The notes beneath the pieces were generated by a model. The model saw only the letters and a list, made by a program, of their open reading frames with translations, had not been told where the DNA came from and made no database searches. The position numbers and the translations under genes are program-made. A stretch of 64,000 nt of DNA from Acidobacteriota bacterium (lineage in GTDB: Bacteria > Acidobacteriota > UBA6911 > RPQK01 > JAJDTT01). Each line of letters opens with the position of its first letter. The stretch's first letter is position 1. Shown here in pieces: positions 2,118 to 48,411 of this stretch. Where the stretch lies: contig OZ253580.1 of the NCBI GenBank assembly GCA_965263035.1, forward strand, positions 3,264,001 to 3,328,000. The letters are read 5' to 3'.

Positions 2118-2276
2118 CAGCCCGTGGCAAAAGCCGTCACGGCATTCGACCGTCCCTGCATCGTGCGCGGACTGTGTTGCGATTCGGTCACATACTCCCG
2201 GTATGCTCCCTCACCGCGCCTGGTCCGGCGGGCGCAGGAACGGTCTCGGTGCTCGCGGGACTTTCACCACGGACTG
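2118..2276. mobile_element. MITE-like hairpin element family A, intact copy 1 (159 bp)
   Basis: Imperfect TIRs CAGCCCGTGGCAAAAG / CTTTCACCACGGACTG, flanked by ATAG (the TAG stop of the upstream gene) and CTAG. Near-identical inverted copy at 48090-48248. Confidence 0.9.
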
Positions 2277-2354
2277 CTAGCGAGCCGGGAGCGAGTTTCC
2301 ACCGAAGTCCCGATCCGATACTGCGGCTGGATTCATCGTAGATTCACATCAGAC

Positions 2355-2363
2355 TGCTAAAAT
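2355..2363 (+). promoter_or_regulatory. Extended -10 element (TGCTAAAAT), probable leaderless transcript
   Basis: TGnTAAAAT ends 6 nt before ATG 2370; no SD sequence. Confidence 0.6.
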
Positions 2364-2369
2364 CGCGCC

Positions 2370-3656
2370 ATGGCAAGACTATTTCCCTTTCGAGGCTACC
2401 GTTACGATTCGCAGCTGGTCCCGCGGTTGGACGACGTCGTGACCCAACCCTACGACAAGATTTCTCCCGGCATGCTTCGGAGATATCTGCGGAAGGACCC
2501 CCGGAACATCGCCAGGGTCATCAAGAATACGGACTACGCCGATGCGGCGCGGCATCTCACCGATTGGATCGAGTCGGGGGTCCTGCGGCGCGACGGGGTT
2601 CCGTCGTTCTACCCCTATCGGCAGGTCTTCGAGATCCAGGGACAATCCCACGCTCGACTGGGTTTCATCGGCTTGATCTCTCTGGACGAGGCGGACCTGG
2701 CCGTTCGGGGCCACGAAAGGGTGCTTCGCGGACCACTCCAGGACCGTCTCAACCTGATTCGCCACACCGAGTCCAACGAGGGGCTCATTTTCATGCTCTA
2801 TTCGGACCCCGGCTTGTCCGTGGACCGGTTGCTCGCCCGATTCACCGAGTCCACCGAACCTGTGATCCAGGTCCAGGACGAGTACGGCGTGCATCACCAG
2901 TTGTGGCAACTTACGCAGTCGAACCTCCAGGCAGAGGTCACCGCCGGGCTCATGAGTAACCGGCTCTACATCGCCGACGGTCATCACCGTTTCCAGACCT
3001 CGGTCGAGTACCGCAACGAGTGTCTCGCCCAAGGCTGGCGAACCTCGGGTCCGGAGAGCTTCGACAAGCGAATGATCGGGCTCTTCAACATGGAGAGTCC
3101 CGGACTCAAGGTCCTGGCGACGCATCGCGGAATCAAGAACGTGGACGAATCCCGGATCGGGCGCCTCCCGGCCGGTCTGGAGCCATTTTTCCAGGTGGAA
3201 AGCGTTGCCCGCGCGGAAGACCTGACCTCGCTCCTGGCGGGAGAAGGCCAAACCATGGGTCTTGTCTTCGGTGGTACGGGGCAGTCCTGTCTGCTCCGGC
3301 TCCGGGAACGAGCCCCTTCCGACCCGTCCTTCATGACAACCATTCAGGGACCGGCTCGTTCATTGGACGTGAACATTCTGCATGAAGGCATTCTCAACCC
3401 GCTTCTTGGGATCGGCGCCGAGGAACTCTCCAGCCAGAACTTCGTCGAATATTTCCGGGCTCCTGGGGAGCTGATCTCAAAGGTCAAAAAGGGCGAGCTT
3501 CAGGCCGGTTTTCTGTTGAATGCAACTCGCTTGGGACAGGTCAGGGAAATTTCCGATCTGAGCCAGAAAATGCCTCAGAAGTCCACCGATTTCTATCCCA
3601 AGCTCCTGACCGGACTGGTTCTGATGAAGATGGAGATGGCGAGAGGTCCGGAGTAG
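2370..3656 (+). CDS. DUF1015 family protein
   Basis: PFRGYRY, PYDKI, HERVL, YIADGHHR and MPQKSTDFYPKLLTG motifs. Confidence 0.92.
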   Translation: MARLFPFRGYRYDSQLVPRLDDVVTQPYDKISPGMLRRYLRKDPRNIARVIKNTDYADAARHLTDWIESGVLRRDGVPSFYPYRQVFEIQGQSHARLGFIGLISLDEADLAVRGHERVLRGPLQDRLNLIRHTESNEGLIFMLYSDPGLSVDRLLARFTESTEPVIQVQDEYGVHHQLWQLTQSNLQAEVTAGLMSNRLYIADGHHRFQTSVEYRNECLAQGWRTSGPESFDKRMIGLFNMESPGLKVLATHRGIKNVDESRIGRLPAGLEPFFQVESVARAEDLTSLLAGEGQTMGLVFGGTGQSCLLRLRERAPSDPSFMTTIQGPARSLDVNILHEGILNPLLGIGAEELSSQNFVEYFRAPGELISKVKKGELQAGFLLNATRLGQVREISDLSQKMPQKSTDFYPKLLTGLVLMKMEMARGPE

Positions 3657-3707
3657 CTCGACTCCGGTTCCGCGATGGGCCGGAAACGCATTCGGGCAAG
3701 GCTCCAG

Positions 3708-3866
3708 GAGTCTGCGCGGTAGAAATGATCGTAGCGAGAAAGTGGGGAATCGAGGCCGGATTTTCTCGATTTGGAGGTGCATAGTTGTTCTATTCGCCGA
3801 GAAATCGGGGGAATCTGGACCGATTCTACCGCTTTCGCAGTAGATCAATTTCTGCGGCGCAGGCTC
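3708..3866. mobile_element. MITE-like hairpin element family B, intact copy 1 (159 bp)
   Basis: TIRs GAGTCTGCGC / GCGCAGGCTC, flanked by CCAG and CTAG. Further copies at 35991-36149 and 48253-48411. Confidence 0.9.
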
Positions 3867-3894
3867 CTAGGCCGCATTTCCCGCCGGGGACGCC

Positions 3895-4656
3895 ATGATC
3901 GAATCCGAATTGGTCCGGCGCCTATCCATCGTCCTGGTCGGGACCCGAAGCCCCGGCAACATCGGTTCGGCGGCGCGCGCCATGGTCAACATGGGCCTCC
4001 GCCGTCTCAAACTGGTCCGCCCGGTGGCGGAGTGGAGGGAGGAGGCCGTGAAAATGGCCTCGGGAGCCCTGGATCGGATGGACCCGGTCCAGGTCCATAC
4101 CTCATTCGATGAGTCGGTGGCCGAAGCGCAGATTCTGGTGGGAACCACCTCCGGCAGGGAGAGACGAACCCATCATCCCGTGTACACACCGCGCCAGATC
4201 GCCCCGCTTCTGAAGCGGTATGCCCGAACCCAGGAGGTGGCGCTGCTCTTCGGTCCCGAGAACCGGGGACTCACCGACCGTCAGCTTTCCCGATGCCGAT
4301 ACCTGGCGACGGTGCCTTCGAACGACGCCTTTCCGGTGTTGAATCTGGCTCAGACCGTCATGGTTCTCGCGTACGAGATCAACACCTGTGAGGAAGCAGA
4401 ACGTGAAGTCCAACCCGACCTGGTGACACACGACCAACGGGAACGGCTGTTCCGGCAAATGGAGCGAGTTCTGATCCGTATCGGGTTCCTGAGTTCGTCG
4501 AATCCGGACCACATCATGAAGGCCATTCGCAGGTTCCTGGGGCGCGCGGACCTGTCCGAACGGGATGTCCGAATCCTGAGAGGCATCTTCAGCCAAGGGG
4601 AATGGCACGCTCGGCACGGGGACCGGCTTCCACCCGATCAGGTGCGCAAACCGTGA
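3895..4656 (+). CDS. trmJ: tRNA/rRNA 2'-O-methyltransferase, TrmJ/LasT (SPOUT) family
   Basis: PGNIGSAARAMVNMG, LLFGPENRGL, LNLAQTVMVLAYE and a C-terminal helical domain. Confidence 0.9.
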   Translation: MIESELVRRLSIVLVGTRSPGNIGSAARAMVNMGLRRLKLVRPVAEWREEAVKMASGALDRMDPVQVHTSFDESVAEAQILVGTTSGRERRTHHPVYTPRQIAPLLKRYARTQEVALLFGPENRGLTDRQLSRCRYLATVPSNDAFPVLNLAQTVMVLAYEINTCEEAEREVQPDLVTHDQRERLFRQMERVLIRIGFLSSSNPDHIMKAIRRFLGRADLSERDVRILRGIFSQGEWHARHGDRLPPDQVRKP

Positions 4657-4705
4657 CGGACTGTGATGAAAGGTGCGGGCCGAGGCCGGGCTGCTATGTC
4701 TGCCG

Positions 4706-5008
4706 CTACCGGGCCAGCTTGCTCTTGAATCTCTGGACCCGCCGCCGCAACTCGTGAAACGCATGGGTGATGCTGGTGGAAGGGTTGGTCGCCGTTTCAC
4801 GGACCCGAATGGCCGTCTGCGGAACCACCAATACCAACACCGTTTCGCACTGCCGGCCGCGCGGCAGCACCTCGACCACGACGTGAAGATCCAGATCGTG
4901 AGGCTTGAAGCTGGGAAGAAGCCTGCGGACCTTGGCGCTCTGTCTGCCGATCAGGCGCTGTAAGCTGGAGTCCAACCGCAGATGCCGACCCTGAACCTCA
5001 ATCTTCAT
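4706..5008 (-). CDS. hpf: Ribosome-associated HPF/RaiA family protein (short form)
   Basis: MKIEVQGRHLRL N-terminus, 100 aa. TATAAT at 5027-5022 upstream. Confidence 0.7.
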   Translation of the reverse strand: MKIEVQGRHLRLDSSLQRLIGRQSAKVRRLLPSFKPHDLDLHVVVEVLPRGRQCETVLVLVVPQTAIRVRETATNPSTSITHAFHELRRRVQRFKSKLAR

Positions 5009-5169
5009 TAATTCTTTACAAATTATAGTCTCGACGGTCGACGAGCATCAACTGACTTCTGAGAGCCGTCTACAGGGTTGTAACGGACGGCGGCCGAACT
5101 CCCGTGGCGACTCCTGATGCAGGCTGATAGACTCCGCTGCCCTGACCCCAACATCGATGGAGTGGTGAA

Positions 5170-7983
5170 ATGCGCAAGATGATGACGGCATTGGTGATCC
5201 TGACGGCTTTGATCCTGCCGGTTCCGGGCCGGGACGACTACAAGAGTTGGATCACCCACACCAGTTTCGAGGACTTTGCCTCGGGCCGGATCGCCGACGG
5301 CGGGACCAATCTCTACATCGCCCGTTCGGGACAATTGGAGATGACCTACCGTTGGGACCTGAACAACGACGGCTACCTGGATCTCTTGGTGATCCAGGAC
5401 CACAATCCCTTGGAAAACACCGACGTCCTGGTCTATTGGGGCAAGAAGGGGGGGCCGGAATCGATACTGCCCCCGTTGCCCGGCCATCAGCCGCTGGCCC
5501 GGCTGTTGAGACAGATCCGGATTCGCGACCAGGGGGTCACCCGTTTGCCCAGTGACGGCGGCGGCCGTTCCCTGGTGGCGGACCTGAATCACGACGGCTA
5601 TCCGGAGCTGATCTTCTGCAACTTCATTCACAACTACTCGGTTCACATGATGGCGCTCGTCTATTGGGGCAGCCCGAACGGCTACCAACGGGGCCATCGC
5701 ACCGAGCTTCCCACGCTTCTGGCCGGGGGGGTGGCGGCGGCGGACTTCAACGGAGACGGCTTTGTCGATCTCGCCTTCTCCAACCGGGGCATCGAAGGGG
5801 GTGAGCGTTTCGGGTTCGACCTCCACCTGGAGTCCTACGTCTACTGGAACGGTCCCCGGGGTTTTCGGGAAGAGGACCGCACCGCACTGGCCACCACCAG
5901 CGCGGCTGACGTGGCGGCGGCGGACCTCAACCATGACGGCTACGGCGATCTCCTCTTCGCCAACAACAATTCGGAGCACCAGAGCCTTGTCCTGTACCGG
6001 GGCGGGCCGAAGGGTTTCCAGACGCCGGGCGAAACGTGGAAGCAAGGAGACGCCATCGGGGTGACACTGGCGGAAGTGTCCGGGGACCGGGATCCGGATC
6101 TGATCCTGGCGCACAAGGACGACCGGGTGACGATTCACAAGGGAACCGGGCAGGGGATCTCCCGGGAGACCTGGGTCGAGATCCCCTCCCAGGGGGCGAA
6201 GGACAGCCGAGTGGGAGACCTGAACCGGGACGGGCGCCCCGACCTGATTCTGGCTAACGGCGGAGGTGAGACGTCCTATATTTACTGGGGAGGCGAAGAT
6301 GGTTACTCCTCCGGCAGACGCCAGGAACTTCCCACGCTGGCCGCCACCGACGCCGTGTTGGCCGATTACAACGGGGACGGTTGGGTCGACCTGGCCTTTT
6401 CCAACAGCCACGACGGGGCGACCCGCGATGTAGCCTCCTACCTCTACTGGAACGGTCCCGATGGATTCCACGCCGCCTACCGCCGGGAGCTCCAGAGCTT
6501 CGGAGCCGTGAGCCTGGCCGCCGGCGACCTGGACCAGGACGGACACCAGGACCTGGCCGTCATCAACCAGAACAGCGGGTCCCACGGCGCCATCGACTCG
6601 GTGGTCTATTGGGGGAACCCCAGACACCACTACTCTCCTGCCTCCGCAAGCGTCATTCCCGCCAAGGGGGGGTTGGCGACGACGGCCGACCTGGACCAGG
6701 ATGGCTGGGTCGATCTCATCTTTCCGGACGGCTCCATCTTCGGCGGCGGCTCCAGTGGCTTCCGGTTGCAGACGAAGCTGGAAATGGAGCCGGCCAACGG
6801 AGTCACCGTCGGCGATCTGAACCGGGACGGCTACCTGGACCTGACCTATATCGTCGGAGGTGCCCATCGGGACTTGACCCCGACGGCTCGAATTCTCTGG
6901 GGCGGCGAGAACGGCCACGATCCGTCGCGCCGCACCGATCTGCGGCTGGGAATCCGCATCGGGCAGGCGGGCCGGACCGCCGATTTCAACCAGGATGGAG
7001 CCCTGGATCTCGTCTTCACCGACGTGGATTCGGAACACGTCGATCTCTTCTGGGGGAGCCTCGAGTCCGGGTTCAGCCAAGAGAATCATACGGTCTTGAA
7101 GATTCAACCCACCTCCAACCCCGAGATCGCCGATCTGAACGGCGACGGCTGGCTGGATCTGATCTTCGGAGGGGGTTGGGACCCCAAGCGGTTCGGACGC
7201 CCCACCCGGAAAGCCATCCTGGTCTGGGGTAGCCGGGACGGATTCAGCTCGGACCGGACCACCGAAATCGAGGCTTTCGATTCACTGGAGCAGGCAGTCG
7301 CGGACCTGAACCGGGATGGGTATCTGGACATCGTCATGACCAACTATCACGCCTACCACACCCGGACCCTGCCCGCCTTCATTTACTGGGGCGGGGAGGG
7401 GGGCTCCTACAGCGAGTCTCGCCGGACCAGCCTGCCGGCGGAATCCTCCAGCGCCTTGACCGTAGCCGATATGAATCAGGACTCGTGGCTGGATCTGGTG
7501 GTCTTCAACCACTTGGAGAGGGGGGACCACTCGGTCGGCAGCAACATCTATTGGGGAGGAGCGGACGGTTACTCCTACACCCGGCGGCATTGGTTCCAGA
7601 CCTTCGGGCCTCACTTCGGGCGGCTCCGGGACATCGGGAACATCTACGATCGGCAGCTACGGGAGGAGTACGTGTCGGCGATTCTGGAGGTGCCGTCCGG
7701 CAAGAGCGCCGAGCGGCTCCGGTGGAAGGCCCTGACCCCCCATGGGACGGGCGTCCAGTTCCAGGTTCGCAGCGCATCGTCCAAGGCGGCTGTGGAATCG
7801 AGTCCGTGGAGGGGACCGGAGGGACCCGGCAGCTACTTCCGAGAATCGGGAACGGCGTTGCGGCTGCCCCCGGGAGAGGCCTGGCTCCAGTATCGAGCGA
7901 TTCTGACGACTCCCGACGGCGGCAGCACGCCGGTGCTTCAGGAGGTCGCCATCGACGTCAGGCGTCGGAGCGCGGTGGAATGA
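5170..7983 (+). CDS. Secreted FG-GAP/VCBS repeat beta-propeller protein
   Basis: Signal peptide; about 14 DxNxDGxxD-type Ca-binding repeats, most followed by Y/LWG-like motifs. Confidence 0.9.
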   Translation: MRKMMTALVILTALILPVPGRDDYKSWITHTSFEDFASGRIADGGTNLYIARSGQLEMTYRWDLNNDGYLDLLVIQDHNPLENTDVLVYWGKKGGPESILPPLPGHQPLARLLRQIRIRDQGVTRLPSDGGGRSLVADLNHDGYPELIFCNFIHNYSVHMMALVYWGSPNGYQRGHRTELPTLLAGGVAAADFNGDGFVDLAFSNRGIEGGERFGFDLHLESYVYWNGPRGFREEDRTALATTSAADVAAADLNHDGYGDLLFANNNSEHQSLVLYRGGPKGFQTPGETWKQGDAIGVTLAEVSGDRDPDLILAHKDDRVTIHKGTGQGISRETWVEIPSQGAKDSRVGDLNRDGRPDLILANGGGETSYIYWGGEDGYSSGRRQELPTLAATDAVLADYNGDGWVDLAFSNSHDGATRDVASYLYWNGPDGFHAAYRRELQSFGAVSLAAGDLDQDGHQDLAVINQNSGSHGAIDSVVYWGNPRHHYSPASASVIPAKGGLATTADLDQDGWVDLIFPDGSIFGGGSSGFRLQTKLEMEPANGVTVGDLNRDGYLDLTYIVGGAHRDLTPTARILWGGENGHDPSRRTDLRLGIRIGQAGRTADFNQDGALDLVFTDVDSEHVDLFWGSLESGFSQENHTVLKIQPTSNPEIADLNGDGWLDLIFGGGWDPKRFGRPTRKAILVWGSRDGFSSDRTTEIEAFDSLEQAVADLNRDGYLDIVMTNYHAYHTRTLPAFIYWGGEGGSYSESRRTSLPAESSSALTVADMNQDSWLDLVVFNHLERGDHSVGSNIYWGGADGYSYTRRHWFQTFGPHFGRLRDIGNIYDRQLREEYVSAILEVPSGKSAERLRWKALTPHGTGVQFQVRSASSKAAVESSPWRGPEGPGSYFRESGTALRLPPGEAWLQYRAILTTPDGGSTPVLQEVAIDVRRRSAVE

Positions 7984-8007
7984 GGTTCCCGAAAATCGAC
8001 CGGCGGA

Positions 8008-9909: not shown

Positions 9910-10021
9910 GGGGGGATCCTCCACCGGGGCTCTATCTTGGATGCCACGGTTTCCACCGAGATTAAGTCATGGTGAGGTTGGGGGCAACTCCGGCGAGGGC
10001 GTAACTTGTGACCGCCCATCG

Positions 10022-10080
10022 ATGCAGTCCGCCAGGGTTCGCGACCGGTCGAATGCCGTGACGGCATTTCACCCGGACTG
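10022..10080. repeat. Degenerate half of a family A element
   Basis: GCAGTCCGC...CGGTCGAATGCCGTGAC...CGGACTG followed by CTAA; matches 48191-48248. Confidence 0.7.
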
Positions 10081-10124
10081 CTAAACTCCCCCTTTCAACT
10101 GACCGACACCGTTTGGGAGATGCC

Positions 10125-12896: not shown

Positions 12897-12913
12897 CCGT
12901 CCGTTTCTCCGCT

Positions 12914-18533: not shown

Positions 18534-18677
18534 CAGTCCGTGGGAATGATCGTACCGGCAAAGGGGGAAATCCGATCCTGGAAGTCGCTCCGGGAACACG
18601 TTACCCTGCTCTGGCGCAACGCAGTCCGCCGGGATGCAGACCCGGTCGAATGCCGCGACGACTTTTGCCACGGGCTG
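18534..18677. mobile_element. Degenerate family A element retaining both ends
   Basis: ATAG|CAGTCCGTGG at the left and CGGTCGAATGCCG...GACTTTTGCCACGGGCTG|CCGG at the right; centre diverged. Confidence 0.75.
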
Positions 18678-28951: not shown

Positions 28952-29680
28952 GTGGAATCATTGAGAGTCGAGAACCTCACCAAGGACTATCCCATGGGAG
29001 AGCGGGTGGTCCGGGCCCTGGACGGGATCTCGCTGGAGGTCGTTCCGGGAGAGTTTCTGGGTGTCGTGGGCCGTTCCGGTTCCGGGAAGTCGACCCTGCT
29101 CAACCTGCTGGCGGGGCTGGACCGCCCCAGTTCGGGATCGCTCTGGGTCGGCGACCGGGACCTGACCCGAATGAGTCCCGAACAATTGGCTCATCATCGC
29201 CAGCACACGGTGGGAATCGTGTTTCAATTCTTTCATCTGATCCCGACCTTGACCGCCCTCCAGAACGTGGAATTGCCCATGGCGTTCTCCGGGTTGGGAC
29301 CGGGAAAACGGGCGGACAAGGCCAGATCGCTGATGGAAAATGTTGGACTCTCCCACCGTCTGGACCACGTTCCCTCTCAGCTCTCCGGAGGTGAGCAACA
29401 ACGGGTCTCCATCGCTCGTTCACTCGCCAACGAACCTCAGTTTCTTCTCGCCGACGAACCCACCGGCAACTTGGACAGTGCCACGGCCAGGGAGATCCAG
29501 GAGATCTTCAAGCGGCTCCACTCGGAGGGGCGCACCGTGATCTGCGTGACCCACGAGCAGGATCTCTGGAAAGAATGCCTGGATCGCGTGATCGAATTGA
29601 GGGACGGCCGTCTTTTCCGGGAAGAACGGCTCGGGCGCGGCAAAGGCGGCGGGAACGGAAGCCCGGGCGGAGAGGACTGA
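28952..29680 (+). CDS. ABC transporter ATP-binding protein (MacB/LolD-like)
   Basis: GRSGSGKS, LSGGEQQRV and LADEPTGNLD. Confidence 0.95.
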   Translation: MESLRVENLTKDYPMGERVVRALDGISLEVVPGEFLGVVGRSGSGKSTLLNLLAGLDRPSSGSLWVGDRDLTRMSPEQLAHHRQHTVGIVFQFFHLIPTLTALQNVELPMAFSGLGPGKRADKARSLMENVGLSHRLDHVPSQLSGGEQQRVSIARSLANEPQFLLADEPTGNLDSATAREIQEIFKRLHSEGRTVICVTHEQDLWKECLDRVIELRDGRLFREERLGRGKGGGNGSPGGED

Positions 29681-31020
29681 TGCCCTGGAGAGACATCTTC
29701 CAGCTGGCCTGGCGCAATATCGGACAGGCCCGCCTTCGCTTCGTCCTGACCTGCCTGGGGGTTCTGATCGCGATCTCCACCCTGGTGGCGCTGGTGAGTT
29801 TCGGAGCCGGGCTGCGCTTGCAGACGGTGGGGAACCTGGAGGTGCGGGAGGTTTTCACCTCTTTCCAGATTCTGGGACCCGCCAGATCCCAGAGCTTCCG
29901 ACGGTTTCGGGATTCCGACCCGGACTCCACCACCCCAACCGCCAGACCGGTTCTGGACGAAGACCTGGTCCGCCGGGTTTCGGCGCTTGAAGGAGTCGTG
30001 AGCGTCCAGCCGGACATCCGATTCGCGGCTCGTCTGGAGCACGGGGACAAGGTTCACCTGACCCGGGTCCGCGGAGCAGGCCCGCACGTCGCTCCCCTGT
30101 CCCCCTATTCGAAGATCACTCAGGGGCGGTTTCTCTCCGGGACCAAGGGGCCCGAGATCGTCCTCACCGGCCGGGTGGCTCGCCGGTTGGGGTTCGAGCC
30201 CCCGGAAAAGGCAGTGGGGAAAACCATCCAACTCTTGACGGATCGTCTCAAGCGGGACGTCGACGACGGGGATCTCCCCTTCGAAACGGTTCGACTCTCC
30301 TATCAGGTCGTGGGTGTCTTGCCTCGTCTGCTCCCGAATCAGACCAACCCGTTTTTCCGGGGCGTGGTCATCCCCTTGGAAGAGGCGCGCGTACTCTGGA
30401 GGCAAAATGCGAGCGGGATGACGTCCCTGTCCGGTCTGACCTCTCTGGAGGAAGGCCGAGGGCGGGAATACGACAGCATCGACGTGCGCGTGGCGGATCT
30501 GGTGAGCCTGGAGCGGGTTCGGGAAGAGGTCCGGTCCTGGGGGGCGGCGACGTTCGCCATCGTCGACCAGATGAAGCGGATCCAAGAGGCGTTTCTCGTG
30601 CTTGAGGTGGTCCTCGGCGTCCTGGGCGGAATCGCCATGCTCGTCGCATCTCTGGGCATCGCCAATGTCCTGATCATTTCGGTCATGGAGCGCCGCCAGG
30701 TCATCGGCATCATGAAGGCCATCGGAGGAACCGATCGGGACGTCCGCCGCATCTTCCTGGCAGAGGCGGGCTTGATCGGATTTTCAGGCGGCGTCATGGG
30801 CCTCCTTGCGGGCTGGACTCTGACCCGAATCGCCACGGTCTTCATCGACCGCTACTTCCAGAGTCACGATATTCTGGACGCTCCCAACCTCTTTGCCTAT
30901 CCCCTGTGGCTGGTGGCGGGCGCCATCGGTTTCGCGGTGGGGTTGAGCCTCCTCTCGGGCGTGATTCCAGCCAATCGCGCCACCCGGGTCGATCCGGTCC
31001 AGGCTCTCCGGCAAGGCTAG
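29680..31020 (+). CDS. ABC transporter permease (MacB/FtsX-like)
   Basis: TGATG coupling to the ATPase; SVMERRQVIGIMKAIG and PANRATRVDPVQALR. Confidence 0.93.
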   Translation: MPWRDIFQLAWRNIGQARLRFVLTCLGVLIAISTLVALVSFGAGLRLQTVGNLEVREVFTSFQILGPARSQSFRRFRDSDPDSTTPTARPVLDEDLVRRVSALEGVVSVQPDIRFAARLEHGDKVHLTRVRGAGPHVAPLSPYSKITQGRFLSGTKGPEIVLTGRVARRLGFEPPEKAVGKTIQLLTDRLKRDVDDGDLPFETVRLSYQVVGVLPRLLPNQTNPFFRGVVIPLEEARVLWRQNASGMTSLSGLTSLEEGRGREYDSIDVRVADLVSLERVREEVRSWGAATFAIVDQMKRIQEAFLVLEVVLGVLGGIAMLVASLGIANVLIISVMERRQVIGIMKAIGGTDRDVRRIFLAEAGLIGFSGGVMGLLAGWTLTRIATVFIDRYFQSHDILDAPNLFAYPLWLVAGAIGFAVGLSLLSGVIPANRATRVDPVQALRQG

Positions 31021-31058
31021 GAGTCTGCGCGGTAGATCAATTTCTGCGGCGCAGGCTC
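31021..31058. mobile_element. Internally deleted 38-bp family B element
   Basis: CTAG|GAGTCTGCGCGGTAGATCAATTTCTGCGGCGCAGGCTC: the left and right ends of family B fused at GTAGA. Confidence 0.85.
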
Positions 31059-35192: not shown

Positions 35193-35282
35193 GGATCTGC
35201 GATTCGACGGCGTCCTTGGCTCAGCGGCCAAAGCCGATCCGCAGCCGCCGTGACGGGTCGAGCCCGTCCGTTCCCGGGTGGT

Positions 35283-36183
35283 TCATCTCCGAGTCTTGGC
35301 CAGAATCATTGCACCTCTCCAGCGGATTGCCTTGAGTCGCTCCAGCTTCATCTCGAGGGAAGTGCCGGGCAGGTCGCTGTCCGCCAGGGTCAGGAGCAGG
35401 GGGATGGTCCTTCCCGACTTGGGTTTGATGCTCATCTCCTTCCAGGAGAAGAGGACCTCCAAGGTGGCGGTGTGCTGTTTCTGCCTGGCCGTGACGATGG
35501 GAGCGGAGGTGGCGGTCTCCATGCCCTTGTAACCCTTCAGCAGGCGGTGCCATCCAAAGGGTCCCCGGCTTTCGATTCGCGGCGTCAACCAGAAGGTGTA
35601 GTCATAGTCGGAGCGGCGAATGTGGAATTTCAGGTAGTCGTAGAAGAGTGTCCGGTCCCGGCGCCTCCGATCCGGGGTCAGCCAGACCGCATCCCGCCTG
35701 CGGACGCGCTCGATATCCCAGATGTCGTCGGTCCAGTGCATCGCCAGATAGAGATTTTCCTTGTCCCAGAGGCCCTGAACTCGAAGCTCGACGTCTCCTT
35801 CCTTGAACCCCTCGTCGCCGCTTGAGGGTGAGAGCTTCAACCAGGGAACTCCCTGCCACTCGTCGGTGAATCCGTCGATCTGGATGTGTCTCTGCCGTTC
35901 AGGAATCTCCCAGCGCTGCTGCGCCCGAACCGGGACGTCACCCAGGAAGAAACAAGCCAGAAGAGTCAATGATGCTGTTTTGGGAACTAGGAGTCTGCGC
36001 GGTAGAAATGATCGCAGCGAGAAAGTGGGGAATCGAGGCCAGATTTTCTCGATTTTGAGGTGCATAGTTGTTCTATTCGCCGAGAAATCGGGGAAATCTG
36101 GACCGATTCTACCGCTTTCGCAGTAGATCAATTTCTGCGGCGCAGGCTCCTAGCCCACGCTGGCTCCAAGTCAAGGTCTTCAC
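35283..36183 (-). pseudogene. Secreted CBM9/DOMON-like protein whose signal-peptide region is interrupted by a family B element
   Basis: IDGFTDEW and WDKENLYLA motifs. Removing 35991-36153 restores the frame GTG36183-MKTLTWSQRGLVPKTASLTLLACFFLGDVPVRA/QQ, with a GGAGGG RBS. Confidence 0.8.
35991..36149. mobile_element. MITE-like family B, intact copy 2 (159 bp), perfect CTAG duplication
   Basis: CTAG at 35987-35990 and 36150-36153; near-identical to 3708-3866. Confidence 0.92.
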
Positions 36184-36240
36184 CCCTCCACTGATCCGGT
36201 CAGAGTCTTCAGGAGCAAACGCATTGTAGCACCCAGACAC

Positions 36241-36434: not shown

Positions 36435-36504
36435 GGGGTTGTCAGACAGTCCACATGGAGCGTAATCTCTGCCGGGAGCCGGAGTAAGCCCGGCGGTCAC
36501 GACG

Positions 36505-36930: not shown

Positions 36931-36975
36931 GGAAGTATGTGACGGCTGATGTTGGAGGCTGCTAGAATCCAAGTC

Positions 36976-37266
36976 ATGGTCCGGTCTTTTCTCTGCGCCG
37001 TATTGTTGCTCACGCTCCTTCAACCCGCCTGCTTCTGGCGGAAGAAACCCATCGAAGAAAGGGTCTTCGACGTCTATGGGACGGTGGAGTCCATCACCCC
37101 GGACGAGTTGGTCGTCACCGCCCGCAAGAAGGGCCGCCTCACCTTCGCCATGACCGACGCCTCCATCAAGGGAGGGGAATTCGGACCCGGCGCCTACGTC
37201 CACACCTACTACAAGCTCAAGGGGGACGTGAAGGAGGTGACCATGGTCGTCGAGAAAATCGATTGA
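36976..37266 (+). CDS. Small putative lipoprotein
   Basis: Hydrophobic leader ending in QPAC. TGCTAGAAT lies 7 nt upstream of the ATG. Confidence 0.8.
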   Translation: MVRSFLCAVLLLTLLQPACFWRKKPIEERVFDVYGTVESITPDELVVTARKKGRLTFAMTDASIKGGEFGPGAYVHTYYKLKGDVKEVTMVVEKID

Positions 37267-37283
37267 CACTGAACCGGGAGGCC

Positions 37284-38081: not shown

Positions 38082-38093
38082 CGAGCGTTGGCG

Positions 38094-38115
38094 AACCCGG
38101 CGCCGGGTTTTTCTT
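38094..38115 (+). terminator. Intrinsic terminator between convergent genes
   Basis: AACCCGGCGCCGGGTT palindrome followed by TTTCTT. Confidence 0.65.
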
Positions 38116-39527: not shown

Positions 39528-39604
39528 GAATGAATCTCTCTACTCCAGGGTGGCATGCGAAGCGGCCCTGACCACGGCATCCACGTAACGCTCCAAAGCC
39601 TTGC

Positions 39605-41890: not shown

Positions 41891-41980
41891 TCAAGAATCC
41901 AGGTAGAGAGATGTCAACAGCCCCCGTGCGGGACTGTCCAGGATCGTATACCCTGAACCCAAAGCCGCGGGAATCCAGTG

Positions 41981-43897
41981 ATGAATCCTCATTCCAAAGC
42001 CTTTGTCCTGGTTTTTTGCATCGCTTCCATAGCCTTGCCGTCGTCCGGCTGCCAGACCGGAGCGCCGCCCTCCGAAACCGCCCGGAGCGATCCCCAACGC
42101 CTTGAGTTCACCCGGATGATCGTCCACTGGACCCGGTACGTGGAACCCGGCTACCTGGATTTCGTCCGGGAGGCCGAGCCGGAGATCGCCCAGGTCGGCT
42201 TCTACGGCGCCGACTTCTGGTCCATCGCCCATCTCCCGGACAAGAACAAGGGCGTCACCGGCCCCCTGCTGCCCATCCATGCCGGGGTGGTCGAGGCTCA
42301 GGACCCCGCCGAGCGGATCCGGCTGAGCGGCGACTACTTCCAGGAGCTCAACCGTGAGCTCAAGCAACGCGGAGTGAAACCCATCGGACACTTCGACGTC
42401 GCCAAGTACCTGCTGGGGCGGCCGGACCAGTCGGGCCGGCCCAGGGACGGTTTTTTCAAGTTCTACGAAGAGCTCTGGGACGAGAAGGAGCTGGGCCCGA
42501 AACCGGTGGCGGACCCCTTGGAGCTCTTGTCCAAGAATCGGGATGGGTCTCCCTACATCAGTTTCGATGAGGACGCCGCGCCTTACACCGTCTATTGGGG
42601 CTGCCTGGCCAACCCCCACTGGCGCCGGGTGTTGAAGGCCTGGGTCAAGCGGGGGATCGAACGGGGATTGGACGGCTTCCAGATCAACTACTTTTATCGG
42701 GTCGACTGCCACTGCCGCTATTGCGTGCACGGCTTCAAGGCTCATCTGGCGTCCCGCTACGATCCGGAGGAGCTGCGCCGCCGGTTCGGAATCGAAGACC
42801 TTGAGGCTCATCAATTCAGTGAGATCGTCTCCCGGCATCGTCCCGCCGAGACGACCCCGTTGCGCCTGGAGATGCAGCTCTTCTCGGACCTGGTCAACAA
42901 GGAGGCCTTCGACGACGTCTTCCACCAGTACGGCCGTTCCCTCAAGCCGGACCTGATCACCTCCATCTGGGGCCACAGCTCCCAGGATTTCGGGAATCCG
43001 CCCACCGGGAACAACGACGAGCGGATGATGCTCCCCTCCGAACTCTGGGGAGAGGACGAGAGCTACCTCTGGTACTGCCTGGGCCGGCAGGAACCGACGC
43101 TGCAACTGCGTTACATCCGGGGCGCCTTCGACGACAAGCCGTACACGGTCTGCCATTACGAAAAGGTCAAGATCCGGGCCTCCATGGCCGAGCTCATGGC
43201 CAACGGCGGAGCGCCCATGGCCCGGTACATCGATTTCACCGATCCGGCGGCCAAGCAGGAATTCGTGCGCTACTACCAGTTCCTGAAGCGGTATGATTCA
43301 GTCTTTCGCGCCAATCGGCCCTACGGCGAGGTCCTGCTGGCGCACCCCCGCAGCCACAACCACCAGGGCCGGTTGCTCCCGGCCATGACGGCATTTCAGA
43401 AGATCGGACATCACCTGATGGACCGTCACGTGCTCTTTGACGTGGTCCCGGACGAGATCATCCGGCCGGAGCAGAGGAGCGCCTACCGCCGGGTCTACGA
43501 GATCGACTCCGCCGAGGGAATGGAGACGGAGAACTTCGGGGACTTGAGCCGCTTCCAGGCTCCGGCGACGGTGCGGGTCTCGGCCAGCCGGCCCGCCGGA
43601 GGAGGCGAGGTGACACTGCACTTCGTGAACTACGACCGGGAAGCCGGCCCGGAGGGCTATGCAGGAACCGGGATCGCCGACGAGAACCCCATCGCCGTCG
43701 ACGGAATCGGCGTCGACTTCGTGGTGCCGGCGGCTTCCCGAGTGGTGAAGGTGGAAGCGTTGTCGCCGGAGCGGCCGGAGCCGCAGACGGTTGCCATTCA
43801 GGTCGACGGCGGCCGGCTTCGGTTCACCCTGCCGGAGTTCCTGGTCTACGGCATGGCTCGCATCCACCTGGAGCCGATCCTGTCGGCCCGGCGGTAG
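41981..43897 (+). CDS. Secreted or lipoprotein glycoside hydrolase-like TIM-barrel protein
   Basis: GCLANPHW, GLDGFQIN, CHCRYC Zn-like motif and LHFVNY C-terminal domain, reminiscent of GH42/GHL proteins. Confidence 0.75.
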   Translation: MNPHSKAFVLVFCIASIALPSSGCQTGAPPSETARSDPQRLEFTRMIVHWTRYVEPGYLDFVREAEPEIAQVGFYGADFWSIAHLPDKNKGVTGPLLPIHAGVVEAQDPAERIRLSGDYFQELNRELKQRGVKPIGHFDVAKYLLGRPDQSGRPRDGFFKFYEELWDEKELGPKPVADPLELLSKNRDGSPYISFDEDAAPYTVYWGCLANPHWRRVLKAWVKRGIERGLDGFQINYFYRVDCHCRYCVHGFKAHLASRYDPEELRRRFGIEDLEAHQFSEIVSRHRPAETTPLRLEMQLFSDLVNKEAFDDVFHQYGRSLKPDLITSIWGHSSQDFGNPPTGNNDERMMLPSELWGEDESYLWYCLGRQEPTLQLRYIRGAFDDKPYTVCHYEKVKIRASMAELMANGGAPMARYIDFTDPAAKQEFVRYYQFLKRYDSVFRANRPYGEVLLAHPRSHNHQGRLLPAMTAFQKIGHHLMDRHVLFDVVPDEIIRPEQRSAYRRVYEIDSAEGMETENFGDLSRFQAPATVRVSASRPAGGGEVTLHFVNYDREAGPEGYAGTGIADENPIAVDGIGVDFVVPAASRVVKVEALSPERPEPQTVAIQVDGGRLRFTLPEFLVYGMARIHLEPILSARR

Positions 43898-43975
43898 ACT
43901 CGCCAGTCTTCCGAAGCCACGTATCGATGGGAGCAACCGGAAGAAAATGGCAAACGAACACGAAAGGGAAACGGC

Positions 43976-45196
43976 ATGAACGGAGCCATCTCAGCCCAGG
44001 AATTCGAGTCCAGGCACGAGCGGGTCCGGGAATTTCTGCGGGAACGGGACCTGGGCGCTCTCTTCGTCTATTCGCCCCCCGCGGAGCACAAATGGGGCCA
44101 GACCGCCCATGTGGCCTATCTCTCGGGCTGGGCCAACCACGATCGCATCGTGGACTCGGTGGTGGTAGTCCCGGTCTCCGGACCGCCGGCACTCCTGTTT
44201 GCGGGCATTCAGTACATGCAGGAGCAGGTGCAGGAGGTGTCGCCGCTGGAAGATATCCGTCTGGTCCAAGCCGTCGATCCGCATGCGGTCGCCGTCGCCC
44301 GGGGACGGGGCAAGGGACCTCGCGACTTTGCTGCCGAAACCGTCGCCATCCTGGAGGAGAACGGAGTCGGGGATAAGGACGTAGGTATCGTCGGGATTCA
44401 GAACATGCCGCTGGCTTTCTACGAGGCATTGGCCGCCGGGCTCGGGTCCAAGCTCCGCCGGGTGGACGACGTGGTCGCCCGGCTGCGCGGCGTCAAGTCG
44501 CCGGCCGAAGTGGGATTGATGAAACGGGCGGCCGAGTTGAGCGATCTGGGTTTCCGGACCATGCTCGAAGTGGCCCGGCCCGGAATGCGGGGCATCGAAG
44601 TCCTGGCCGAGATGGAGCGCGTCGTCCGCCGCGAGGGGGCCGACCACGCCAAATACTGGATGGCGTCGGGGCCGCCCACCGATTGGAGCGAGACCCGTTT
44701 GGACATCAAGCCCCATGAGCGAGTGCTGGGGGAGGGGGACCTGATGGCCTCCTGTTCCTACGTGGTCTACAAGGGTTACTGGTGCCACGGTCAACGGACC
44801 GGAACCCTGGTCCGTCCCTCAGCAAAGTTGGAGGAGATCTTTCGAACGGCGCGGGAATGCCAGGACGCCGGACTGGAGCATCTCCGAGCCGGAGTCCCCA
44901 TCGCCCGGGTCGCCAAGACCATCGGCGACCTGGCCGCCCGGCGCGGGATGCCGCTGATGGGAGGACGCATCGGCCACGGGATCGGAATGGACTACAGCGA
45001 GCAGCCGGCGCCCCTCACCGAAGCCAACCAGGAGCTGCTGGAAGAGGGCATGACCTGCGTGATCCACGCGGCCTACACACTGCCCGGTTCAGGCAAGATG
45101 TTCGTGCCGCTGGGCGACGTCTGTCAGGTGACGGAGAGCGGCCCCGAATTCCTGATGAGCTTCACCCGAAACCTGTTTCTGGCGGGGCAGGGGTAA
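43976..45196 (+). CDS. M24 family (creatinase/Xaa-Pro peptidase fold) protein
   Basis: Creatinase_N-like start, LRGVKSPAEV and GHGIG. Confidence 0.88.
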   Translation: MNGAISAQEFESRHERVREFLRERDLGALFVYSPPAEHKWGQTAHVAYLSGWANHDRIVDSVVVVPVSGPPALLFAGIQYMQEQVQEVSPLEDIRLVQAVDPHAVAVARGRGKGPRDFAAETVAILEENGVGDKDVGIVGIQNMPLAFYEALAAGLGSKLRRVDDVVARLRGVKSPAEVGLMKRAAELSDLGFRTMLEVARPGMRGIEVLAEMERVVRREGADHAKYWMASGPPTDWSETRLDIKPHERVLGEGDLMASCSYVVYKGYWCHGQRTGTLVRPSAKLEEIFRTARECQDAGLEHLRAGVPIARVAKTIGDLAARRGMPLMGGRIGHGIGMDYSEQPAPLTEANQELLEEGMTCVIHAAYTLPGSGKMFVPLGDVCQVTESGPEFLMSFTRNLFLAGQG

Positions 45197-45250
45197 CGAG
45201 ACGGGATTTGGGGGAACCCCGCCGTCAGCCGTTCGCGGCCGAAAAATCGG

Positions 45251-45571
45251 TCAGCGGACCCTCACCGCCGTGCCGCTGGCGGTGACCATGAGCATGCTTC
45301 CACCCTTCCCCACGACTTCGTAGTCGAGATCGATGCCGACCACGGCGTCTCCGCCTCTCCGGCGGGCCACGTCCGCCATCTCGTCGAGGGCGATCTCGCG
45401 GGCCCGCTGAAGCTCCTTCTCATAGGCCGCGGACCGCCCGCCGACGATGTCTCGAATGCCGGCGAAAAAATCCCGGAAGATATTGGCGCCGACGATCGCC
45501 TCTCCCGTGACGATTCCGCAGTATTCGCGGATGGTTTTGCCTTCGATGCTTTGAGTCGTGGTCATGATCAT
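45251..45571 (-). CDS. ybjQ: UPF0145/YbjQ family protein
   Basis: [25 protein letters not shown] and [11 protein letters not shown]. Confidence 0.95.
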
Positions 45572-45729
45572 GGGTTGGGCTCCTTGTCAAAACGGCGCCG
45601 CAAGTATCTGAATTGCGACTGGCGGATGCAACCGGTTCTTGAGGTGGACTGTCCCCGTTTTACGGGTGGAGCGCCCGCTTTTCCGGGTTGCGGATATCCC
45701 GGCATAGTGCGGAGGCTTTTCGTAGCGAC

Positions 45730-46392
45730 TCAATCCACGACGGGATAATAGGGCGGGCCCCAACCGCCGTCCGGGTGATCCATCATCAGATCAATGAAAT
45801 GCGGAACGAGAAAGGCCATGATGTTCGCTCCGTCCCGGACCTGACGCCGATTCACCCCGCTGTTCCAGGTCGCTCCTCCATGAAAGAGTTGATTCCTCAG
45901 AACGTAGAGCCGGTCGAACAGAATACTCAGAACGACCCGTGTGTCCTGGCGGGCAAGCGCACGCCCGATCAGCTTCTGGTCTCGGATGAAGAAGTTCTCC
46001 CAATTACCGTACCCTGGCATCTGATTGTGGTGTCTCCAAAACGGCTGAAACACATATCTGTTGTTCAGGAGCAACCGGATCGGACCCGAAAACGTCGACC
46101 AGATGGCATCGTAGATTGTCCGGTCGGCATCGAATCTGACGATCTTTTCGAAATACTCGCCGAACAGCTCACGCTCCTCGGCTCCGTACGACTCGGGAAT
46201 GTCTTTCGCATATGCTGCGTTGAAGGCAATCCAGTAGAAGATGAAGGTGGCGTCGATGTCCTCCGCTTCCTTCTCGGCGCGCTCGATCCAACTCAGCGAG
46301 CGGTGCAGGCGCAGCCGAAGACCGCTCGGCAGGCCATCCGAAACGCCGGAAAACTTTGATCTCAGGCTTTCGGTGGTCAACTCGTCCCGCAT
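45730..46392 (-). CDS. Stand-alone HEPN domain protein (Apea-like)
   Basis: HRSLSW, FYWIAFNAAY and LYVLRNQLFHG (R-x4-H); visibly less GC-rich than its neighbours. Confidence 0.85.
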   Translation of the reverse strand: MRDELTTESLRSKFSGVSDGLPSGLRLRLHRSLSWIERAEKEAEDIDATFIFYWIAFNAAYAKDIPESYGAEERELFGEYFEKIVRFDADRTIYDAIWSTFSGPIRLLLNNRYVFQPFWRHHNQMPGYGNWENFFIRDQKLIGRALARQDTRVVLSILFDRLYVLRNQLFHGGATWNSGVNRRQVRDGANIMAFLVPHFIDLMMDHPDGGWGPPYYPVVD

Positions 46393-46447
46393 GCCCTCCG
46401 GCCTCGAATTGACTGGAACACGACTCGGTCCCTCCTTATCTCCTGAA

Positions 46448-48076
46448 TCAGCCCGCGACGATCCAGGGCCATCCCAGGATGAGGACGATCAAGGGGAAAA
46501 GGGGCAGCAGAGCGAGGGCCGACTTGACGGCGATCCGTCCCCTGGAATCCTCGGTTTGAATCACCTTGCTGAGGGCGGCCCCGGCGGCCAGGTTGACCAG
46601 CAGCGAGAGCGGACTGATCCATTGAAAGCTGATGGGCGAGACGTCGATGGCGCCGCTAGAACCCAGGAATGCCGAGTCTTGAAGAAGGCTGTAGAAATTT
46701 CCCGAGAAGGCGATCAACGCGCCCACCGTGATGCCGTAGACAGCCCCCACAACGGCCCCCGCCGGTTTTCCGAAACGGCAGAAGAGAGCGAAGAAGAACA
46801 GGCTGAAGGCGGGTGTGGCCAGCAGGTTGGTGGTTCGCTGGGTCATGCCCGTGATGTTTCCCGGGACGTTCCCCATGTAGGAACTGCCGACGACCACGAT
46901 GGCTCCCAGGCCGAAGGCCAGGCACTGGGCCACGCGGACATGTCCTTTTCTGGTCTTGGGCATGAGGCCGAACCGATCCAGGAAATCGGTCGTCACGACG
47001 GCAGTGATCGAGTTCACGCCCGAGTCGAGACTCGACATGGCCGCGGCGAACATGGCGGACACGACCAGCCCGGCGATTCCGACCGGCAGGTGGTAGGCGA
47101 TGAACCTGGGAAAGATCCGGTCTCCATCCACAGCCAGGTTCAGTCCGGCCGGCAGCGCATCAGGCCGGGCCTGAAAATATCCCATGAGGGCGAAGCCGAC
47201 GAAGAGCAGGGTGAACAGGACGGTGGAGGCCACCAGAGTCTGAGCCAGATAGGAACGCTTGGCGGCTTCCGCGTCGCCGGTGGCCATGAACCGCTGAATG
47301 CTCAACTGGTCTCCTCCGGCGGTGCAGACGGTCCAGACCAGGACCGAGAAGAAGGTTCCGAACATGGTGACCCGGACCCGGGGATCGAAGCTGAAGGCGG
47401 GCTGACTGTCCCAGGTGGGTTGCCAGGAAGTGGGAATCCAACTGAAATCGCCGAGCTCGACGGTCACCAGGACGATGACCACGATCGCCCCTCCCAAGAG
47501 CAGGGCCGTCTGCAGGAAGTCGGTGATCACGACGGCTCCCAAACCGCCCAGAGAGGTGTAGATGATGGAAACGAATCCGGTGACCAGGACGATCCACGGG
47601 ATCCATTCCTCGCTGACGCCCAGCATCACCGTCATGGCTCGGGCCGCCACGTAGACCAGCAGGCACATCCAACTCAGACGCACCACGACGAACATGCCGG
47701 CGCCCAAGAGGCGCACGCCCAACCCCAGTCTGTCCTCCAGCAACTCGTAGGCGCTGGTCACGCGGTGCCGCATGTAGACGGACAGGAGGTACCGGCGCAC
47801 GATGAAGTAGGACACGGGATAACATGGAATGATCAACAGGATCATGATCGGGCCCTTGGAGATCGTCTCGCCCGGAACCGAAAGGTAGGAGATGGTGCTC
47901 AAGTGGGTGGCAAAGAGGGAGACGCCCACCAGTACAGGGTTCAGGCTGCCGCTTCCGATGAAGTATTCGCGCGAGTCCTTCTGCCTGCGGCTGTAGTACC
48001 AGCCCAGGACGATGGTGGAGCTGGCATAGACGACGATCACCGTCCAATCGATCCAGGAGAGTCCCGTCTGTTCCAA
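46448..48076 (-). CDS. Sodium:solute symporter (SSS) family
   Basis: Multiple TM helices; SAYELLEDRLG, YTSLGGLGAVVITD, DQLSIQRF and AAAMSSLDSG. Confidence 0.95.
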   Translation of the reverse strand: MEQTGLSWIDWTVIVVYASSTIVLGWYYSRRQKDSREYFIGSGSLNPVLVGVSLFATHLSTISYLSVPGETISKGPIMILLIIPCYPVSYFIVRRYLLSVYMRHRVTSAYELLEDRLGLGVRLLGAGMFVVVRLSWMCLLVYVAARAMTVMLGVSEEWIPWIVLVTGFVSIIYTSLGGLGAVVITDFLQTALLLGGAIVVIVLVTVELGDFSWIPTSWQPTWDSQPAFSFDPRVRVTMFGTFFSVLVWTVCTAGGDQLSIQRFMATGDAEAAKRSYLAQTLVASTVLFTLLFVGFALMGYFQARPDALPAGLNLAVDGDRIFPRFIAYHLPVGIAGLVVSAMFAAAMSSLDSGVNSITAVVTTDFLDRFGLMPKTRKGHVRVAQCLAFGLGAIVVVGSSYMGNVPGNITGMTQRTTNLLATPAFSLFFFALFCRFGKPAGAVVGAVYGITVGALIAFSGNFYSLLQDSAFLGSSGAIDVSPISFQWISPLSLLVNLAAGAALSKVIQTEDSRGRIAVKSALALLPLFPLIVLILGWPWIVAG

Positions 48077-48089
48077 ATCGACCTCCTAG

Positions 48090-48248
48090 CAGTCCGTGGT
48101 GAAAGTCTCGCGAGCACCGAGACCGTTCCTGCGCCCGCCGGACCAGGCGCGATGAGGGAGCATACCGGGAGTATGTGACCGAGTCGCAACGCAGTCCGCG
48201 CACGATGCAGGGACGGTCGAATGCCGTGATGACTTTTGCCACGGGCTG
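48090..48248. mobile_element. MITE-like family A, intact copy 2 (159 bp)
   Basis: Reverse complement of 2118-2276 with a few substitutions; flanked by CTAG and CCAG. Confidence 0.92.
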
Positions 48249-48252
48249 CCAG

Positions 48253-48411
48253 GAGCCTGCGCGGCAGAAATTGATCTACTGCGAAAGCGGTAGAATCAGT
48301 CCATATTTCCCCGATTTCTCGGCGAATAGAACGACTATGCACCTCAAAATCGAGAAAATCTGGCCTCGATTCCCCGCTTTCTCGCTACGATCGTTCCTAC
48401 CGCGCAGACTC
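48253..48411. mobile_element. MITE-like family B, intact copy 3 (159 bp)
   Basis: Reverse complement of 3708-3866; flanked by CCAG (shared with the A copy) and CTGG. Confidence 0.92.

Follow-up and report, generated by a model that had tools for sequence, protein, structure and literature searches.

Passages on IS1182 elements in two earlier publications describe a 4-bp direct repeat for this family (PMC3281130, PMC3852290), and the part concerned with ISMac2, an IS1182 element, gives MITEs of 160 bp (14 copies) and 169 bp in Methanosarcina acetivorans (PMC3852290). Long stem-loops at the RNA level are a classic MITE feature according to sections of a review, in which transcription and compensatory changes are reported for bcr1 (PMC3184786). 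Here we describe two families of short elements, A and B, in a window of 64,000 nucleotides from an Acidobacteriota bacterium and in the remainder of its genome.

Copies in the window and in the genome

The initial annotation had located five elements in the window, two of family A and three of family B, and all five were recovered at their positions with a length of 159 bp each. CTAG-like tetramers flank every one of them, as had been noted (ATAG/CTAG, CTAG/CCAG, CCAG/CTAG, CTAG/CTAG and CCAG/CTGG). Together with shorter relatives, the features of the window are:

2118..2276, minus strand: family A, putative MITE, 159 bp; flanks ATAG (2114-2117) and CTAG (2277-2280)
3708..3866, plus strand: family B, putative MITE, 159 bp; flanks CCAG and CTAG
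10036..10083, plus strand: decayed remnant similar to family A's right end, with CTAA behind it; left extent uncertain
18534..18677, plus strand: 144-bp family A variant with A-type ends and right half and a different left half; flanks ATAG/CCGG
31021..31058, plus strand: 38-bp mini derivative of family B with only the two terminal repeats
35991..36149, plus strand: family B, putative MITE, 159 bp; CTAG/CTAG duplication
48090..48248, plus strand: family A, putative MITE, 159 bp; flanks CTAG and CCAG
48253..48411, minus strand: family B, putative MITE, 159 bp; adjoins the A copy at 48090..48248

The last two copies have one tetramer in common (48249-48252). Exactly 4 bp separate seven pairs of full copies genome-wide, this pair included, with one tetramer per pair. 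The 38-bp derivative of B directly follows the TAG stop of the ORF at 29575-31020, and seven such pairs of B terminal repeats, 38-41 bp long, were counted in the genome. Insertions of both families often fall on TAG or TAA stop codons.

Genome-wide, full copies number 154 for A and 163 for B, with both families in both orientations and far above chance. They total 50,430 bp, which corresponds to 0.81% of the 6.2-Mb genome. The common length of 159 bp held for the window copies and for B, where 156 of 163 copies measure exactly 159 bp, but the 154 A copies range from 158 to 161 bp (160 bp in 57, 158 bp in 42, 159 bp in 30 and 161 bp in 17). A 4-bp target duplication identical on both sides was observed for 76/154 A and 73/163 B copies. 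CTAG, which had been taken as the target of both families, likewise applies to B: this family inserts at CTAG, and its left flank reads CTAG in 88 and CCAG in 27 of the 163 copies. A inserts more broadly, at NTAN tetramers and most often at TTAA; the matched flank pairs among its 154 copies include TTAA (24), ATAT (8), CTAG (7) and TTGA (5). Among the B flank pairs, CCAG on the left or CTGG on the right is more frequent than the reverse (24 vs 10). VSP repair was considered for this skew and dropped, a Vsr match being absent from the genome. A de novo k-mer scan returned no further family of ~160 bp with at least eight copies besides A, B and their variants, and the A-B pair had no match in plasmid and phage collections. 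Weak A and B matches in one further genome, marked as unpublished, were set aside.

Parent elements and mobility

The 159-bp elements contain no transposase sequence, and the window encodes no cognate enzyme, as the initial annotation had stated. The parent of B is a 1599-bp insertion sequence with one intact copy in this genome, located outside the window and flanked by CTAG on both sides; its match to B is confined to the terminal inverted repeats of ~18 bp (18 bases per end). The transposase of this element (P0001, 441 aa) passes the IS1182 model NF033551 with 363.3 bits (cut-off 270), carries the Pfam domains DUF772, DDE_Tnp_1 and DDE_Tnp_1_6 and is 49% identical to the ISKpn6 transposase over 99% of its length. 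B appears to be a MITE of an ISKpn6-like IS1182-family element.

For A, sister genomes contain elements with A-type ends that measure 1457-1478 bp, carry ORFs of 447-454 aa and are flanked by the duplications CTAG, CTAC, TTAA and TTAG; only deleted remnants of 754 bp and 1072 bp are left in this genome. The 1072-bp remnant and the insertion sequence of the sister genomes disagree on which way A is oriented with respect to its parent. The best match of the A-type transposase (P0002) is NF033551 at 178.8 bits, followed by IS5_4 at 84.6 bits, which is under the cut-off of 140. Since the NF033551 score is also below its cut-off, we term the enzyme IS1182-like within the IS5/IS1182 group and not a member of the family, and A appears to be a MITE of this second parent, which measures ~1.47 kb. 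The transposases of the two parents show little similarity (31% over 114 aa). Nevertheless, the ends and transposases of both parents bear out the earlier assignment to non-autonomous transposable elements of the IS5/IS1182 type.

Comparison with same-genus genomes yielded empty sites for two of the window copies. At 2118, the site of an A copy is empty with a single GTAG in eight of eight genomes, the tetramer being read in three of them; the B copy at 3708 is absent from eight of eight, and the empty site read in L058 and L059 holds a single CCAG. These sites and the 4-bp duplications indicate that A and B are both mobile elements. A TTGA joint between an A end and an A start suggested a circular form of A, but the genome contains tandem A-A copies that account for it. 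RNA-library runs contain the stretch; the assembled contigs break at these repeats and give neither strand, ends nor level.

As far as can be judged from sequence, both families have the attributes of MITEs: ends that match an insertion sequence, target duplications with empty sites, small size, non-coding interiors and many copies. Copy number, ends, duplications, empty sites and parent elements carry our main reading, to which we assign a probability of about 0.88, namely that A and B are commonplace non-coding miniature transposons, each mobilised by its own transposase of IS1182 type, the two enzymes being only distantly related. With its autonomous insertion sequence each family shares only the terminal inverted repeats of ~18 bp; the DDE transposase of that sequence would act in trans with nothing beyond the ends required, as we infer from the common ends and target. 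The 4-bp TA-core duplication and the ~160-bp size would recur because the transposition machinery is related, not because of a common loop, and the palindromy over the whole length would be the usual MITE architecture. Some observations fit this reading less well. The A-type transposase stays under the IS1182 cut-off (178.8 vs 270 bits), and a tblastn search found no intact copy of its gene in this genome, so that A may be immobile here or cross-mobilised. Furthermore, the occurrence of 159 bp in two unrelated interiors is not accounted for, and the strand-polar fold of B is not predicted by cut-and-paste transposition of double-stranded DNA that needs only the ends.

If read as MITEs, A and B present a clean case, with ~160 copies in each of two families, recent insertions whose sites are empty in sister species, and both parents identified. 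At 0.8% of the genome and with insertions into stop codons, they matter for the annotation and assembly of this lineage.

Folding and strand polarity

Both families fold end to end, and the orientation chosen in the initial annotation is indeed the more stable one (A -95.1 vs -75.1 kcal/mol, B -85.5 vs -54.4 kcal/mol). The same forward strand is the more stable in 154/154 A and 163/163 B copies. We compared the polarity of the wobble pairs with simulated decayed palindromes: it stands out for B, where none of 300 simulations reaches the gap of 31 kcal/mol, but is marginal for A (22/300). The strand-polar folding of B survives from the earlier proposal and is unexplained by the MITE reading. 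Beyond being a MITE, B, and perhaps A, might be under selection for a single-stranded fold of one polarity, which we regard as unlikely on the present balance of evidence. Such a fold could act as RNA (a transcript stabiliser, a processing site or a small RNA) or as a single-stranded DNA hairpin that joins the ends during mobilisation.

Several results from B favour selection on the single strand. Apart from the MFE gap (-85.5 vs -54.4 kcal/mol, 0/300 simulations), 28 of 28 B sequences from 13 genomes are more stable in the forward direction, two of them at ~75% identity. In the cross-genome alignment of B, 97.2% of cells pair against 95.8% in shuffled alignments (0/500), although common descent can by itself raise an alignment above its shuffles, with no structure involved. 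Double changes occur at seven B pairs (2/500 shuffles). G-U cells outnumber A-C cells in B by 159 to 17; however, the prediction was made for the forward strand, and this choice raises G-U counts relative to A-C. Within this genome, Watson-Crick pairs of B changed to forward wobbles in 28 distinct events (131 copies) and to reverse wobbles in 12 (19 copies), but this bias shrinks to 24 vs 12 (p 0.065) for rare changes. The variation in A shows no such bias (33 vs 35 events), in addition to its marginal energy gap of 22/300. The orientation of the copies shows no bias with respect to flanking genes, which also speaks against such selection: with crude gene calls made within this analysis, same and opposite orientations in tandem gene contexts number 47 vs 41 for B and 30 vs 29 for A, and B copies behind stop codons number 23 vs 15 (p 0.26). 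The forward strand is the leading strand in 94/163 B (p 0.06) and 72/154 A copies, which is no clear bias. No promoter-like site was seen in the one A-B pair scanned, and Rfam gave no match at gathering score over the whole window and none at E values up to 1 over 48050-48450.

A more general form of this idea, that one specific single strand of IS1182-type MITEs of ~160 nt is under constraint to fold and that the hairpin, as single-stranded DNA or RNA, aids mobilisation or retention, seems to us more doubtful still. If true, the constraint would explain both the wobble polarity of B and the recurrence of ~160 nt in two unrelated bacterial families and an archaeal IS1182 MITE. We know of no characterisation of the mechanism of IS1182-family transposition; should the fold of B stem from a single-stranded intermediate or from a role as RNA, this would tell something new about the process.

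The proposed shared centre

The arms of A and B had been described as dissimilar, and they are: in register the two agree at 48 of 159 positions, where shuffling gives 47.9 on average. Their centres had been called related, which the data do not bear out, since 150 of 2000 shuffles reach the observed score when the central 40 nt are aligned globally. GCATA-N7-TAT, which had been suggested for finding a transposase or HUH nuclease gene, marks no other element: it occurs 288 times genome-wide, about 263 times inside A and B themselves. The proposal that a single enzyme yet to be found acts on both A and B, as one structurally constrained class, via a conserved apical loop is very improbable. The modal length is the same, and the apical hairpin, short in both families, shows GCATA at position 70/71 and CCGAG close to position 89, but the similarity of the centres is not significant, whole-length identity is that of chance, A and B each match a DDE element of their own with a distant transposase, the apex is changed in diverged B relatives of ~75% identity and varies more than the arms in A (the full 29-nt motif is intact in 38/154 copies), B derivatives of 38-104 bp without a centre occur at several loci with CTAG-type flanks, and the closest A or B copies are 26 and 37 kb away from the genome's two HUH (Y1) genes. 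The 38-104-bp derivatives could also represent recurrent deletions between short direct repeats. The suggestion of an undescribed system likewise gives way to two families that match their own autonomous DDE insertion sequences via ~18-bp ends. A match of both families to MITEs of described IS families, which the initial annotation had itself named as evidence against its proposal, is largely what we found.

Comparison with described elements

REP/REPIN sequences (RAYT, Y1 HUH) resemble A and B in being high-copy, intergenic and palindromic; DDE-type ends, duplications of 4 bp and DDE parents set A and B apart. A link to IS200/IS605 or REP-RAYT systems is not indicated by the two Y1_Tnp matches, given their distances of 26 and 37 kb, or by the replication strand, for which no clear bias emerged. 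A separate REP-like repeat of 22 nt with 135 copies clusters beside one of the Y1 genes.

Correia/nemis, Chunjie and bcr1, in the review sections that cover them, are like A and B elements of 100-200 bp with terminal inverted repeats, short duplications and very stable end-to-end stem-loops (PMC3184786); they differ in their transposase families. In these sections we found no discussion of a strand-polar wobble pattern like that of B (PMC3184786). The ISMac2 MITEs share with A and B the IS1182 family, the 4-bp direct repeat and the size class, and differ in their archaeal host.

For B, a close match is ISKpn6. Its ends in a Klebsiella plasmid record start with GAG(C/T)CTGCGCGGCAGA, are flanked by CTAG on both sides and differ from the ends of B at one or two of the first 16-17 bases. 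B differs in being 159 bp long and geneless, with ~18 bp per end in common with its parent, and in the phylum of its host, Acidobacteriota. A and B are new as families, and their kind, the IS1182-type MITE, is already known.

Copies, target sites and insertion

The five 159-bp copies of the repeat families A and B reported in the initial annotation were confirmed at their positions, each with a CTAG-like tetramer on either side, and a repeat finder pairs them at 93–97%. Three further features were absent from its list.

2118-2276: family A
3708-3866: family B
near 10036-10083: decayed A-like end
18534-18677: A variant of 144 bp with a different left half
31021-31058: mini-B of 38 bp, two B ends only, abutting the TAG stop codon that closes a 481-aa ORF
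35991-36149: family B
48090-48248: family A
48253-48411: family B

Short 38–41-bp pairs of B ends like that at 31021-31058 occur at six further genome sites. The window also holds seven in-frame-looking direct repeats of 54 nt (5569-7344; 61–81% alike, spacing in multiples of 3), which by eye look like an FG-GAP/VCBS-like repeat-domain protein, and two adjoining stretches of ∼2.1 kb (59097-62768; 71–80% identity in several blocks), probably paralogous genes in tandem.

The contig is single (6,198,070 bp, 62.1% G+C). Using one copy of each family as blastn query we obtained 191 (A) and 194 (B) alignments genome-wide: 154 and 163 are full-length (query 1–3 to 157–159, at least 80% identity), besides 37 and 31 partial ones. 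Full copies lie on both strands (A: 75 plus, 79 minus; B: 73 plus, 90 minus) and total 50,430 bp or 0.81% of the genome. The length is exactly 159 bp in 156/163 B copies; A copies measure 160 bp (57), 158 bp (42), 159 bp (30), 161 bp (17) or other values (8). A k-mer scan of the genome found no other family of ∼160 bp with at least 8 copies.

Identical 4-bp duplications flank 76/154 A and 73/163 B copies. The target of B is CTAG (left flanks: CTAG 88, CCAG 27; right flanks: CTAG 98, CCAG 20, CTGG 18). Family A uses a broader NTAN set, with matched pairs TTAA (24), ATAT (8), CTAG (7) and TTGA (5); therefore the proposal of a common target is only partly true: both families take CTAG, but TTAA is commonest in A. 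Where the two flanks of a B copy are unequal, CTAG has more often turned into CCAG in the left flank or into CTGG in the right one (24 pairs) than the other way round (10 mirror cases); such changes create CCWGG together with the first or last base of the element. No Vsr gene was found in the genome.

At loci 2118 and 3708 the alignments of all 8 same-genus genomes run through the site, and none has the element. The empty A site carries a single GTAG in the three genomes read and the empty B site a single CCAG in the two read. These single tetramers define the element boundaries and the 4-bp duplication and show both insertions to be recent. In seven cases (6 A-B, 1 A-A) two full copies are neighbours separated by exactly one tetramer, for example 48248/48253; new insertions therefore reuse the tetramer next to a resident copy. 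Because TAG or TAA lies within the targets, many insertions coincide exactly with a stop codon (38 B ends and 28 A ends by our crude gene calls). The stop is then supplied by the duplicated tetramer.

Parent elements and distribution

Parents were sought via end-like motifs outside the full copies. The candidate for B is a 1599-bp element elsewhere in the genome, flanked by CTAG on both sides, which has in common with B only the 18 bases at either end; another copy (81% identity) is interrupted about 1335 bp in. Its 441-aa ORF, the transposase P0001, contains DUF772, DDE_Tnp_1 and DDE_Tnp_1_6 domains, passes the NCBIfam IS1182 model (363 bits, cut-off 270) and is 49% identical to the ISKpn6 transposase over 99% of its length. 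The ISKpn6 record shows CTAG flanks and ends nearly the same as those of B. Judged from sequence, the B copies are MITEs of an ISKpn6-like IS1182 element.

A-type ends were found on only three 754-bp and one 1072-bp larger elements in this genome, all with duplications and with what is left of a transposase gene, frameshifted or deleted, and tblastn with the N-terminus of a remnant as query gave no intact A-type transposase gene here. The same N-terminus has matches in 7/8 same-genus genomes, and six of these relatives (G001, G002, G003, G005, G006 and G007) carry ORFs of 447–467 aa. At four inspected sister-genome loci the element measures 1457–1478 bp, with A-type ends and the duplications CTAG, CTAC, TTAA and TTAG. 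The A-type transposase from sister genomes, P0002, matches the IS1182 model best, although its score of 178.8 bits falls below the cut-off of 270, and it shares only 31% with P0001, over 114 residues (E 3e-7). We take A to be a MITE of an IS1182-like element whose transposase fails the curated cut-off.

The genome as a whole is very rich in insertion sequences (70 DDE_Tnp_1 matches). Among these matches is a third IS1182 element of 507 aa, present in four near-identical copies, which likewise has the end GAGGCTG... and CTAG flanks.

Among 40 same-order relatives, B occurs in 8/8 same-genus and 6/6 sister-genus genomes and in one genome from each of three other families, and A in the 8 same-genus genomes only; weak matches in the unpublished G016 were left out. 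When 120 genomes were sampled evenly across the class, B was present in 11: 9/9 of its own family and two from outside it, each from a different family within the order. Lengths in relatives hold at 158–160 bp. Plasmid and phage collections gave no match to the A-B pair.

Centre, fold and strand polarity

The two families had been proposed to share a related centre, with the motif GCATA-N7-TAT, and to be recognised through their loop. This was not borne out: the alignment score of the central 40 nt (global alignment) is reached by 150/2000 shuffles. In register the consensuses are identical at 48/159 positions versus a shuffle mean of 47.9, local alignment scores equal those of shuffles, and 12/500 shuffles attain the global score for the full length. 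Family A varies most at its centre, and B relatives with ∼75% identity have a different apical sequence; the proposed 29-nt motif is intact in 38/154 copies of A, and the corresponding motif of B in 125/163. Nor did GCATA-N7-TAT mark other elements; about 263 of its 288 occurrences on both strands of the genome fall within A and B (103 A and 160 B copies by stricter family-specific patterns). Centre-less B derivatives of 38, 83, 95–96 and 104 bp with CTAG-type flanks are present at several loci; because their junctions fall in short direct repeats, recurrent deletion would be as good an explanation as transposition.

Both consensuses are predicted to fold end to end, a stem-loop form that a review describes as a classic MITE feature (PMC3184786). 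The suggested fold polarity held throughout, the forward strand being more stable in 154/154 A and 163/163 B copies. Mean energies, forward versus reverse, are −89.6 versus −77.0 (A) and −86.6 versus −56.5 kcal/mol (B); with DNA parameters they are −41.6 versus −35.4 and −42.6 versus −27.4 kcal/mol. As a null we used perfect palindromes decayed to the same mismatch number (n = 300): none reached the B gap of 31 kcal/mol, and 22 reached the A gap of 20 kcal/mol. Mismatched pairs are G-T versus A-C at 6.5 versus 1 in B and 7.5 versus 5 in A.

In a cross-genome alignment of 28 B sequences (13 genomes, four families), 97.2% of cells pair versus 95.8% in shuffles (0/500 reach this) and 34–47% in slid controls, and double changes occur in seven pairs (2/500 shuffles). 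As limits on this signal, the sequences share descent, the forward strand was the one used for predicting the structure, and a single protein reads both ends, so that pairs in the terminal repeats co-vary. Cells with G-U number 159 versus 17 with A-C, and the forward strand is more stable in 28/28 sequences. Within this genome, Watson-Crick pairs of B have changed to a forward wobble 28 times (131 copies) but to a reverse one 12 times (19 copies), or 24 versus 12 for rare changes (p 0.065); the counts for A are 33 versus 35 events. The strand polarity of the predicted folds is real, and the strand-polar fold of B is the residue worth following up.

Inserted copies and comparison with known elements

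Several observations do not fit a role of the inserted copies as RNA or ssDNA. By our crude calls (4104 genes, 81.6% coding), 128 of the 163 B copies lie between genes, 12 overlap a gene in part and 23 lie within one; for the 154 A copies the corresponding counts are 91, 19 and 44. Against such a role, orientation shows no bias in tandem gene contexts (B 47 versus 41; A 30 versus 29) and at stop codons (B 23 versus 15; A 15 versus 13), B is rare between divergent genes (13/140), and the forward strand is the leading strand, with replication inferred from GC skew, in 94/163 B (p 0.06) and 72/154 A copies. There was no promoter-like site in the scanned A-B pair and no Rfam match, and from the two Y1 HUH genes in the genome it is 26 and 37 kb to the nearest copy of A or B. 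A REP-like, G+C-rich palindrome of 22 nt, distinct from both families, has ∼135 genome copies (3 mismatches allowed), one at window 58965 (−) and four within 3 kb of one Y1 (HUH) transposase-like gene, which suggests a REP-RAYT pair.

The finding on A and B, MITEs of IS1182-type parents as judged here, is real but ordinary. Published IS1182 elements have 4-bp repeats, as given for ISPse1 (PMC3281130). A and B share their size class with the ISMac2-derived MITEs of Methanosarcina acetivorans, given as 160 and 169 bp (PMC3852290), and this size class therefore recurs.
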